The position numbers and the translations under genes are program-made. From NCBI RefSeq assembly GCF_009931435.1, contig NZ_CP043414.1: 64,000 nucleotides of DNA; one strand, 5' to 3'. Below, piece after piece: positions 10,702 to 19,446 of the stretch. The notes under the pieces are model-generated. The model saw only the letters and a list, made by a program, of their open reading frames with translations, was not told the origin of the DNA and made no database searches. The stretch's first letter is position 1; the number at the start of each line of letters is the position of its first letter. This DNA comes from Escherichia coli (GTDB taxonomy: Bacteria > Pseudomonadota > Gammaproteobacteria > Enterobacterales > Enterobacteriaceae).

Positions 10702-10729
10702 CCGCTTTCAATCTGTGAGTGATTTCACA
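10696..10729. promoter_or_regulatory. mgl control region: GalR/GalS operator-like site (atgtaaccgctttcaa) adjacent to a perfect CRP half-site pair TGTGAgtgattTCACA (10714-10729)
   Basis: Consensus matches seen directly; mglBAC is known to be CRP-activated and GalS/GalR-repressed. Confidence 0.5.
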
Positions 10730-12039: not shown

Positions 12040-13560
12040 ATGGTCAGCTCAACGACTCCGTCTTCCGGGGAATACTTGTTGGAAATGAGCGGTATCAACA
12101 AGTCTTTTCCGGGTGTTAAGGCACTTGATAACGTTAATTTAAAAGTCCGGCCACATTCTATCCATGCATTAATGGGGGAAAACGGCGCAGGAAAATCAAC
12201 ATTATTAAAATGCCTGTTTGGTATTTATCAAAAAGACTCCGGCACCATTTTGTTCCAGGGTAAAGAGATCGATTTCCATTCTGCCAAAGAAGCACTGGAA
12301 AATGGTATTTCGATGGTACACCAGGAATTAAACCTGGTATTGCAACGTTCGGTGATGGACAACATGTGGCTGGGGCGGTATCCCACCAAAGGCATGTTTG
12401 TCGATCAGGACAAAATGTACCGCGAAACCAAAGCGATTTTTGATGAGCTGGATATTGATATCGATCCGCGTGCGCGCGTCGGCACATTATCCGTTTCGCA
12501 AATGCAGATGATCGAAATCGCCAAAGCGTTTTCCTATAACGCGAAAATTGTGATTATGGATGAACCGACATCTTCGTTAACTGAAAAAGAGGTCAATCAT
12601 CTTTTCACTATTATTCGTAAATTAAAAGAGCGCGGCTGCGGTATTGTTTATATCTCGCATAAAATGGAAGAAATCTTCCAGTTATGTGATGAAGTCACCG
12701 TATTGCGCGACGGTCAGTGGATCGCTACCGAACCGCTGGCAGGGCTAACGATGGACAAGATCATCGCCATGATGGTTGGACGCTCTCTTAACCAGCGTTT
12801 CCCTGACAAAGAAAACAAGCCGGGCGAAGTGATTCTGGAAGTGCGTAATCTGACGTCGCTGCGCCAGCCGTCGATTCGCGATGTCTCGTTTGATCTGCAT
12901 AAAGGGGAGATCCTCGGTATTGCCGGTCTGGTGGGGGCGAAACGTACCGATATTGTTGAGACGTTATTTGGTATTCGCGAGAAATCGGCTGGCACCATTA
13001 CGTTGCACGGCAAAAAGATCAATAACCATAACGCTAACGAAGCCATAAACCACGGATTTGCACTGGTAACTGAAGAGCGCCGCTCAACGGGAATTTATGC
13101 CTATCTGGATATTGGCTTTAACTCGTTAATTTCCAATATCCGCAACTACAAAAATAAAGTTGGCTTGCTGGATAACTCGCGGATGAAAAGCGATACCCAG
13201 TGGGTAATTGATTCGATGCGGGTAAAAACGCCGGGACATCGTACGCAAATTGGTTCACTCTCCGGCGGTAATCAGCAAAAGGTAATTATTGGGCGCTGGC
13301 TGCTTACGCAACCAGAAATATTAATGCTCGATGAACCAACGCGCGGTATTGATGTCGGAGCGAAGTTTGAAATTTATCAGTTAATTGCCGAACTGGCGAA
13401 GAAAGGCAAGGGGATTATTATTATTTCCTCCGAAATGCCAGAGTTGTTAGGGATAACAGACCGTATTCTGGTCATGAGCAATGGTCTCGTTTCCGGAATT
13501 GTCGATACAAAAACAACAACGCAAAACGAAATTCTGCGTCTTGCGTCTTTGCACCTTTAA
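12040..13560 (+). CDS. mglA: Galactose/methyl-galactoside ABC transporter ATPase (two ATP-binding cassettes)
   Basis: 506-aa ORF; Walker [10 protein letters not shown] and signature LSGGNQQK. Confidence 0.95.
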
Positions 13561-14656: not shown

Positions 14657-15892
14657 CTACAACGTTACCGGGTGTTCTTTCTCTCCCTTCTTAAACTTCA
14701 CTTCCCCGAGATCAATACAACCAACCGGGCAAACATGACCACAAAGCAGACAACCAACGCACTTCTCGGTATTACAATGCGGTGTGCGCGTTTTCTCGCT
14801 CCATTCCATCGCCTGGTGACCGCCGTCGTAACAGGAAATATAACAGCGTCCACAGCCAACACATTTATCGAGATTGATATGGGGATAGACGATATAGCTA
14901 CGGTCTAAATCTTCCGCCGGGACAATATTGTGATTCGCCAGACCTACCATCTCCTGCAACGAATCAAATCCCTGATCGGCGAGATAATGCGATAACCCGC
15001 TTGCCATATCTTCCACTATCCGATACCCGTACTGCATAATGCCGGTGGTCACCTGTAACGTTGCTGCGCCGAGCAATAAAAACTCTGCTGCATCTTCCCA
15101 GGTTTCAATACCGCCGATACCGCTAATCGGGAAATCGCGCAGCTCTGGATGGGTGCGCATTTGCTGAATAAAGCGTAGGGCGATCGGTTTTACCGCTTTA
15201 CCGGAATATCCGGAAATACTCGATTTACCGTTAACGATCGGCATACCAATTTTCTGATTAAGATCGATATTGGTGATGGATTTAACGGTATTAATCGCCG
15301 CAATGCCATCTGCGCCGCCGCGCTTCGCAGCCAGCGCCACTTCGCACATATCACCGATATTCGGCGTCATCTTCGCCAGCATCGGCAGCGTAGAACCACG
15401 TTTCACTGCCCGACAATATTTTTCTACCAGCTCCGGGCTTTGCCCGACATCACTACCCATCGCATGAGAAGTCATTTGCGGACAGGAGAAGTTACACTCG
15501 ATCATATCCGCACCAGCTTCTTGCACTAGCCGCGCCAGATCCTCCCACTGCTGTTCATTTTCGCCCATGATCGAAGCTATCAATACTTTGTCCGGATAAT
15601 CTTCTTTCAGCCGACGCAGGGCGGCCAGATTCTCCTCCAGAGGATGTTCGGCAATCTGCTCCATATTTTTGAAGCCGATAAAACCGGTATCTTCTTTCAC
15701 CAGATGATCAAAACGTGGTGAGACTTCGTTGGCGATAAAAAAGCCGATCGTTTTAAATACCACGCCACCCCAGCCCGTGTCGTAGGCTTTGGCGCACATC
15801 TCATAGCAATTGCCTACCGGCGAAGAAGAGAGGCAGAACGGGTTGGGAAACTTCACGCCGCAAAAGGTAATCGAAAGATCTTTCGTTAACAT
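14657..15892 (-). CDS. preA: NAD-dependent dihydropyrimidine dehydrogenase subunit PreA (dihydroorotate dehydrogenase-like + 4Fe-4S ferredoxin domains)
   Basis: N-terminus [19 protein letters not shown]; C-terminal CxxCxxCxxxCP ferredoxin motifs; start overlaps the end of preT. Confidence 0.9.
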
Positions 15893-17124
15893 GAGCAAGC
15901 TCCCTCTAAATAGTGATGAATTGCCTCAGCGGCTTCTTTCCCGGTTTTCACGGCATAAACCACGGTTTTGTCACCCTCAACAATATCGCCAGCAGCAAAG
16001 ACTTGCGGGTCGCGGGTCTGGTAATTTTTTGTTTTGATGGTGTTACGCTGTGGCTCTAACTCCGCAAAGGCATCCAGTCTGGCATGCTGACCGACGGCGA
16101 GAATAATTTTATCTGCCGCCATCGTCAGTTCGCCCGGTAAGCGTACATGCTTAAACGTGACTTTATTGCCTTCCACGGCCACTGGTGTGAATCCATCGAT
16201 GATCGAAACGCCCAACTCCCGGGCGCTGGCAAACTCTTTTTCGCTTGCCGGAAACTCATCTAACTCTTCACGTGCTACGCAGGTTACCGCCTGACAGCCG
16301 AGAACTTTCAGCGTGCTGGCAACGTCCATCGCGACATCACCGCCGCCGATAATTAATGCGCTTTGTGGAATGCTGATATCGCCCTGCGCCTGCCGTGCAC
16401 GTTGCAAGAAGTCGACGGCAATCTCAACGTCGCTATGCTCAAACAGCGGTAGCCCGGAACCGCCCGACAACCCTACGGTGACAAGTACTGCGCGGTTTTC
16501 CGCTTTCAGTTGCTCCAGGGTGAGTACTTTACCGATTTCGTTATTGCACTTAATGGTCACCCCCATTTTTTCGATACGGGCGATCTCTGCATCCAGCACG
16601 GTTTGCGGCAAACGAAATTGCGGAATACCGTTACACAGCCAGCCACCGGGTTGCGCTTCTTTTTCATAAATAGTGACGTCGTACCCCATATTTGTCAGCG
16701 TCACGCTGGCCTGCAATCCAGCAGGACCTGCGCCAATAATGGCGACTTTGCCGAGCGTTTTAGTACCAGGCTGATAAATTTCCATCCCGGTTTGTTGTTC
16801 AAAATCAGTGATAAAACGCTGTAAGCGACCGATATCAATGGGATCATCAACACCGGCACGGGTACAACCGCTTTGACATAATTTCTCCGTTGGGCAAACT
16901 CTGGCGCATACAGCACCTAAGGCATTATTTTCGCGAATTGTCTCGGCAGCGCCTTTAAAATTACGAAAGTAGATTGAGCGTATAAATTTCCCCGGATCGG
17001 TTTGTGCCGGGCAAGCCTGACTACAGGGAGCGTCGTGACATAATAAACAGCGAGAGGCTTCTTTAATCGCCAGTAAAGGCGTAAAAGCCGGAGTGAGTTC
17101 ATCCAGATAATTTTGTTGCGGCAT
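15886..17124 (-). CDS. preT: Dihydropyrimidine dehydrogenase subunit PreT (GltD-like FAD/NAD oxidoreductase)
   Basis: 412-aa ORF; N-terminal Fe-S cysteine cluster and GAGPAG dinucleotide-binding motif. Confidence 0.9.
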
Positions 17125-17309
17125 GTGATCTTCCTTAATGCTATGAGTAATTAAGGCGAACGCTAAATATACTCGTCATACTTCAAGTTGCATGTGCTGC
17201 GTCTGCGTTAGCTCACCCCAGTCACTTGTCGCCTTCCTGCAACTCGAATTATTTAGAGCATAAATATTGCTTGCTGATATTAAGGCTAAGCGTGTGGGGA
17301 AATTTAAAC

Positions 17310-17325
17310 TGTGAAAGAATTCACA
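17310..17325. promoter_or_regulatory. Perfect CRP-consensus palindrome TGTGAaagaatTCACA upstream of preT
   Basis: Exact TGTGA-N6-TCACA seen in sequence about 190 bp upstream of the preT start; function not established. Confidence 0.35.
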
Positions 17326-17327
17326 AA

Positions 17328-17360
17328 TAGCTGCGGTTCAGAATGTTATATCCGCAGCTT
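17328..17360 (-). terminator. Hairpin (tagctgcgg...ccgcagct) downstream of yeiS, candidate terminator of sanA-yeiS
   Basis: 9-bp stem seen in sequence; the following U-tract on the minus strand is weak. Confidence 0.35.
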
Positions 17361-17410
17361 ATTGACTGAAGTAATAATTATTCTCAATAATTAACAGGGG
17401 AGGGACAATA

Positions 17411-18487
<1,077 letters not shown>

Positions 18488-18519: not shown

Positions 18520-19446
<927 letters not shown>

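Follow-up and report, generated by a model that had tools for sequence, protein, structure and literature searches.

PreTA is the bacterial dihydropyrimidine dehydrogenase, and recent work ties it to the inactivation of 5-fluorouracil by gut Escherichia coli. Its operon, preT-preA (formerly yeiT-yeiA), already figures in the catalogue of cAMP-CRP targets. RegulonDB, as reproduced in Table S4 of Shimada 2011, curates CRP as an activator of yeiTA acting at -57.5 on the sequence TGTGAATCTTTTCACA—the exact K-12 sequence at positions 2925-2940 of our K-12 locus (L002), that is, NC_000913.3 2,233,924-2,233,939. Genomic SELEX-chip with purified CRP placed a cAMP-CRP peak in the yeiS/yeiTA spacer, its box being TGTGAAAAGATTCACA (Shimada 2011, Table S3), and yeiT is included in that study's list of known CRP targets also recovered by SELEX (Table 1). 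PhyloScan had ranked b2146 within the top 20 of its CRP predictions (PhyloScan 2007; PMC1794230). These two sources and a sigma-factor SELEX table were all that a search of the literature for CRP together with preT, preA or yeiA returned.

The best-described promoters with which this site may be compared fall into two groups. At lac P1, the type case of class I, a single strong CRP site lies upstream of a weak -35 region and is centred at -61.5. At mglB, galS and cdd, documented CRP targets that lie less than 10 kb apart, CRP binds with its centre at -41.5 or -42.5; mglB and galS belong to class II, and cdd combines tandem CRP sites with CytR. In general, class I promoters have CRP near -61.5, -71.5, -82.5 or -92.5, and class II promoters have it at -41.5, where it overlaps the -35 region.

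Here we analyse the orthologous preT-preA site in the window, by which we mean the whole 64-kb stretch of E. coli DNA under study. With lac P1 the preT site shares the single strong upstream site, the weak -35 and, in Escherichia, candidate hexamers at the -61.5 spacing; it differs in that the 5’ end mapped in K-12 gives -54.5 or -57.5, and it lies nearer to the consensus than the lac site (13.85 vs 9.7 bits on the matrix described below). With mglB, galS and cdd it has the theme of sugar and nucleoside catabolism in common, but in contrast to cdd it is single and has no partner site. The palindrome is a site already on record, namely the conserved cAMP-CRP site of the preT-preA promoter in E. 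coli, and since the connection is in RegulonDB, the site itself brings no new biology. What we add is that it is invariant across three genera while the promoter context around it varies among E. coli strains—through an ERIC element, a patch at the -10 region and, in one strain, an IS1 insertion. Such variation matters when preTA expression is compared among isolates.

The strongest CRP match of the window lies between yeiS and preT

The window runs in reverse orientation relative to K-12, with preA, preT, yeiS, sanA and cdd all encoded on the minus strand (Table 1); the preT annotation was taken from RefSeq for a genome with an identical intergenic region. The core of the site reads TGTGAAAGAATTCACA on the plus strand and TGTGAATTCTTTCACA on the minus strand, which is the sense strand of preT, and matches TGTGA-N6-TCACA exactly. 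Two such matches occur in the window, where shuffles lead one to expect 0.05, and none of 100 window shuffles held two or more. The other exact match (10714-10729) is the sequence of the documented mglB CRP site. The preliminary description had spoken of a perfect palindrome: the exact TGTGA-N6-TCACA pattern is there, as are palindromic arms of 6 bp (TGTGAA/TTCACA), but the central 4 bp are asymmetric, so that “perfect” holds for the arms only.

Table 1 Features of the preT-preA region and nearby CRP sites, in coordinates of the window.
Feature	Position	Strand	CRP-matrix score (bits)	Remarks
galS CRP site	9569		10.71	documented CRP target
mglB CRP site	10714		12.39	documented CRP target
preA	14657-15892	-		second operon gene, overlaps preT by 7 nt; RefSeq annotation mapped to the window and ORF list
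preT	15886-17124	-		ATG at 17124; NAD-dependent dihydropyrimidine dehydrogenase subunit, first preT-preA gene; ORF list and RefSeq annotation
Conserved inverted repeat CCTTAAT-N10-ATTAAGG	17133-17156	-		overlaps, with its right arm, the preT Shine-Dalgarno AAGGAAG (17130-17136)
ERIC (IRU) repeat	17170-17260	-		91 bp, with a 32-bp internal deletion; at TA directly past the -10 candidate
Best -10 candidate, AATATT	17263-17268	-		at -12 to -7 it would set the start near 17256 and centre CRP at -61.5 (class I)
Invariant block TAGCCTT	17282-17288	-		22-28 nt past the CRP core; columns T129-T134 of alignment A1
cAMP-CRP binding site, aacTGTGAAAGAATTCACAaat	17307-17328	.	13.85	22 bp; core 17310-17325, centre 17317.5; would serve the minus-strand preT promoter
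Hairpin after yeiS, putative sanA-yeiS terminator	17329-17359	-		8-bp stem AGCUGCGG/CCGCAGCU, 15-nt loop
yeiS	17411-17650	-		ORF list and RefSeq annotation
sanA	17653-18372	-		ORF list and RefSeq annotation
cdd	18562-19446	-		ORF list and RefSeq annotation
cdd CRP site	19506		11.41	documented CRP target

We scored every 16-mer of the window with a symmetrised position weight matrix built from the 68 RegulonDB 16-mers that part 1 of Table S4 in Shimada 2011 lists, a training set to which the yeiTA entry does not belong. The preT site ranked first among all 16-mers of the window, on a scale on which an ideal palindrome reaches 14.6 bits and the training sites have a median of 6.9 and a maximum of 14.65 bits. 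The documented mglB, cdd and galS sites were recovered by the same matrix. At 14.27 bits, the K-12 orthologue is near-equal to the window site, from which it differs by two spacer bases (ATCTTT in K-12 vs ATTCTT); the two loci also share the yeiS and preT flanks, the half-sites, the upstream hairpin and the downstream TAGCCTT block. Within the yeiS-preT spacer (17125-17410) no second site was comparable, the next-best scores being at most 7.4 bits. The absence of a second site at any suitable spacing also led us to reject a CRP-CytR promoter of the cdd/deoP2 type, in which tandem sites lie ~52-53 bp apart and enclose CytR repeats.

Two minor points concern the sequences scored here. The ATTCTT spacer allele gives rise to an EcoRI recognition sequence, GAATTC, at the centre of the CRP site (17317-17322), and it is rare: only five of 5423 records match the 89-bp segment that spans hairpin and CRP site at 99% identity or better. 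The fourth-best matrix match of the window (10.9 bits), TTTGGTATTTATCAAA at 12217-12232, falls in the mgl operon region, where we saw no documented site.

Half-sites are invariant across three genera

A species scan with the PreT protein as query, taking one genome per species, returned 19 enterobacterial loci, from E. coli, other Escherichia species, E. albertii, E. whittamii, many Citrobacter species and Pseudocitrobacter. All 19 carry an exact TGTGA-N6-TCACA upstream of preT, with five forms of the spacer (ATCCTT, ATCTTT, ATTCTT, AACCTT and ATAGAT) and diverging flanks. Within E. coli, the half-sites are invariant in 10 of 11 sequences (the window, K-12 and eight of nine other sampled genomes), and across all sampled sequences from Escherichia, Citrobacter and Pseudocitrobacter in 29 of 30, the one exception being due to an IS1 insertion. 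That ten half-site bases are held from Escherichia to Pseudocitrobacter while their neighbours change points to selection for binding. The 89-bp segment is present as a single copy in 5423 of 5426 complete E. coli genomes (at least 90% identity).

We aligned 17 yeiS-preT spacers free of large insertions (alignment A1; mean column identity 70%), which revealed three invariant islands: cTATtTGTGAA....TTCACAg, that is, the CRP site; the TAGCCTT block; and CCTTAAT...ATTAAGGAAG at the ribosome binding site. Taken with the RegulonDB activator entry, the SELEX peak and the scores of the window and K-12 sites (13.85 vs 14.27 bits), the cross-genus invariance of the half-sites supports the reading put forward in the preliminary description, namely that this is a CRP site which, judged from its sequence, would place preT-preA under catabolite control.

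The single exception stems from E. coli EP91B (L027, NZ_CP149810.1), in which IS1 sits within the CRP core at about locus position 440 (tgtgaatctt|ggtgatgctgcc...), splitting the half-sites. This insertion is a natural knockout of the CRP site.

Spacing of the candidate preT promoter

Beyond the site, a -10-like hexamer with A at its second and T at its sixth position starts 42 nt past the core in every Escherichia allele, ERIC-bearing ones included (41 nt in E. whittamii, L016). It takes the forms TATTAT, AATATT or TATATT and implies a CRP site centred at -61.5 (-60.5 in E. whittamii). The -10-like hexamers of Citrobacter imply roughly -67.5 to -70.5.

For K-12, directed RACE mapped the 5’ end of b2146 to 47 nt before the ATG, where the sequence reads ‘Tttactaaacgctcgccttaa’ (Mendoza-Vargas 2009; PMC2760140, Table S1). 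Taken as mapped, this end lies downstream of the site and puts the CRP centre at -54.5; the value becomes -57.5, as in RegulonDB, if transcription starts at the A that follows the run of T, a shift that would fit the poly-A-tailing ambiguity described in PMC2760140. The hexamer that suits the mapped start is another one, TACATT, which is absent from the window. Neither -54.5 nor -57.5 is reportedly a spacing that normally allows activation. In a separate survey of start sites in K-12, the sole start credited to preT was weak and lay within yeiS. For the preT promoter we tentatively favour class I over class II.

The stretch of K-12 DNA that holds both TACATT and the mapped 5’ end is a patch of ~25 nt (L002 2969-2995). 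The window (17261-17281) and most E. coli have unrelated sequence there (cagcacgcaatattta...), while the DNA flanking the patch is ~95% identical. The K-12 version of the patch resembles the remnant of an ERIC end (tactaaa).

We consider it highly probable that the site is the cAMP-CRP operator of the preT-preA promoter and that it works as follows. As cAMP rises upon exhaustion of glucose, a dimer of CRP would occupy the 22-bp site and activate sigma-70 RNA polymerase at a weak minus-strand promoter directly downstream. The likeliest mode would be class I, with CRP ~61.5 bp upstream of the start and in contact with the alpha C-terminal domain of the polymerase, AATATT serving as the -10 hexamer. 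Dihydropyrimidine dehydrogenase would thereby come under catabolite control, as its neighbours cdd, mglBAC and galS are. The sequence, its matrix strength and its conservation are shown here, and for K-12 both the binding of cAMP-CRP in vitro and a 5’ end are on record; we infer that the window allele is bound by CRP and that activation takes place in vivo, and likewise the exact start and the promoter class. A promoter with one of the strongest CRP sites of the region should make expression of PreTA dependent on the carbon source.

An ERIC element lies between the CRP site and preT

The preliminary description located the site correctly between the sanA-yeiS hairpin and the preT start—it lies 3 nt past the former and upstream of the preT ATG—yet missed a 91-bp ERIC element between site and gene. 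The yeiS-preT spacer spans 286 bp in the window vs 193 bp in K-12, the extra DNA being this element, which begins 50 nt past the CRP core. With the ERIC in between, the centre of the CRP site is 193.5 bp from the preT ATG, as compared to 101.5 bp in K-12.

We judged the identity of the element by its matches to the ERIC1R and ERIC2 primers, having checked the ERIC2 primer sequence against the literature. Strain M9 carries a full copy of 123 bp at the same place, matching ERIC2 at 22 of 22 and ERIC1R at 21 of 22 positions; the window element equals that of M9 minus 32 internal bp and matches ERIC2 at 17 of 22. In strain 164 the same place is occupied by a form of ~200 bp. Alleles with an empty site (KOr019, O157 and others) read caatattTAtttagcg with a single TA, consistent with insertion of the ERIC at TA. 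A 321-bp query was covered to at least 80% in 2200 of 5426 complete E. coli genomes, so that ~40% of genomes carry an ERIC here; it found a median of five places per genome. Besides the primer-consensus match, the element thus shows the other marks of an ERIC, being an imperfect palindrome, multi-copy and intergenic, and it folds into a long hairpin (-30.5 kcal/mol, z = -2.63).

Like ERIC/IRU elements known from transcribed intergenic regions, the preT copy combines the primer match and the imperfect palindrome with TA flanks and a position in the leader, and the short, full-length and long size forms known for such elements are all found at preT. It differs in lying directly past the -10 candidate of a CRP-dependent promoter. 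The preT leader probably begins with transcribed ERIC sequence. A start near 17256 is four bases inside the ERIC, so the whole ERIC hairpin would open the leader; in the window strain, the transcript would begin at the edge of the element and its leader would be ~91 nt longer than that of an otherwise identical ERIC-free allele. Whether by leader stability, translation or start-site choice, the polymorphic element (91, 123 or ~200 bp) might alter the PreTA level among strains at glucose exhaustion, a suggestion that we put forward only tentatively and regard as rather doubtful. If true, such an effect could contribute to strain differences in 5-fluorouracil inactivation.

No interaction between the ERIC and the Shine-Dalgarno region was predicted. 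Divergent ERIC-like elements occupy the same place in E. albertii and in E. coli E69. A search of the spacer for known RNA families brought up only V_AS5 (Rfam), which we rejected at 23.6 bits against a threshold of 96; the match covers the ERIC (17172-17263, minus strand) and hints that the model of this Vibrio antisense RNA family contains ERIC-like sequence.

Competing readings of the site

Activation from the same CRP site could instead follow the class II mode, with CRP at -41.5, TAGCCT (17288-17283) as a weak -10 hexamer and a start near 17276-17275; the variable downstream region, ERIC included, would then all be leader. The block speaks for this arrangement in several ways. TAGCCT, 22-27 nt past the core, falls exactly on -12 to -7 of a -41.5 site in 28 of 29 sequences (a single Citrobacter, L021, has the whole TAGCCTT block shifted by 1 nt) and keeps T-12, A-11 and T-7, and the class II spacing is the only geometry conserved in all three genera, the class I -10 region being variable, with indels, and tolerant of the ERIC insertion nearby. 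Against it stand the K-12 RACE 5’ end, which lies 13-16 nt further downstream, the RegulonDB position of -57.5 and the GCC in mid-hexamer, which is a poor match to a -10. As a -10 hexamer does not require an invariant GCC, its conservation suggests some other constraint. From its sequence, the block may be a promoter spacer or -35-proximal element, or else the -10 of the alternative class II promoter; with a GCC centre too conserved for a plain -10 or -35 hexamer, it could also be the site of a second regulator. Altogether, we hold a class II promoter at preT to be unlikely and retain class I activation as the favoured mode.

The other readings question whether the site is used at preT at all. 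CRP might bind it in vitro and yet leave it mostly unoccupied in cells, or without regulatory effect, through occlusion by nucleoid proteins or the demand for another signal, in which case catabolite control of preTA would be weak or absent. The high-confidence CRP ChIP-seq table for ETEC H10407 (Haycocks 2015), whose authors describe high-affinity CRP targets that stay unoccupied, lists no peak between cdd and yeiQ, and in the portion of the ChIP-exo supplement available to us (Latif 2018) there is no yeiT, preT or b2146 entry, the sanA-yeiS unit being the only mention. Publications on preTA and 5-fluorouracil make no mention of CRP or glucose; one of them reports lower preTA expression in anaerobic growth, a dependence on oxygen. 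However, the ETEC table also misses the bona fide mglB site, which implies limited sensitivity in this region and makes its silence weak evidence; RegulonDB curates the site as an activator, and the invariance of the ten half-site bases across genera indicates that binding is under selection. We deem this reading improbable. Much less probable still is that the palindrome serves something other than preT, be it the terminator tail, a plus-strand antisense promoter, another protein of the CRP/FNR family (FNR or YeiL) or CRP jointly with CytR. The site does start 3 nt past the hairpin, and its RNA can itself fold into a small one; the plus-strand element TTGACT-18-AATAAT (10/12) would put the site centre near -80.5; and the adjacent cdd is co-regulated by CRP and CytR. 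But Citrobacter keeps the site with a hairpin that is different and further away, promoter-scan matches were no more numerous than in shuffles, and the SELEX protein was purified CRP. An FNR site as such was rejected, the half-sites being TGTGA/TCACA, not TTGAT/ATCAA, with G-C at the discriminating position. Finally, AT-rich spacers hold many near-palindromes, and one might arise by chance with no protein partner; given 0.05 matches expected per window, the top matrix score, the invariance across genera and the selection in vitro by cAMP-CRP, that possibility is negligible, and we regard it as effectively refuted by the conservation and SELEX data. The reading as the cAMP-CRP operator of preT-preA is the one we favour.

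Other elements of the spacer

The tail of the hairpin behind yeiS, AUUUGUGAAUUCUUU, continues into the CRP site. A segment of 71 nt around it (17305-17375, minus strand) folds at -19.5 kcal/mol (z = -4.27). A simple terminator scan did not call this hairpin, as its loop of 15 nt exceeds 8 nt, and a scan for consensus promoters and terminators gave no more matches than shuffles did. Citrobacter has a different hairpin in its place.

At the other end of the spacer, the arms of the inverted repeat CCTTAAT/ATTAAGG are invariant in alignment A1 across genera except for a C-to-T change in Pseudocitrobacter, with which a G-U pair would still form. We rejected this Shine-Dalgarno hairpin as a stable RNA structure: its predicted energy of -4.5 kcal/mol is weak and not better than that of shuffles.

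Directly past the yeiS stop lies an AT-rich palindrome, AATTATT-CTC-AATAATT (17376-17392), which is partly kept in Citrobacter. It overlaps the plus-strand promoter-like element mentioned above (17362-17391), which would read antisense into yeiS, and by eye it looks like a possible Fur box.
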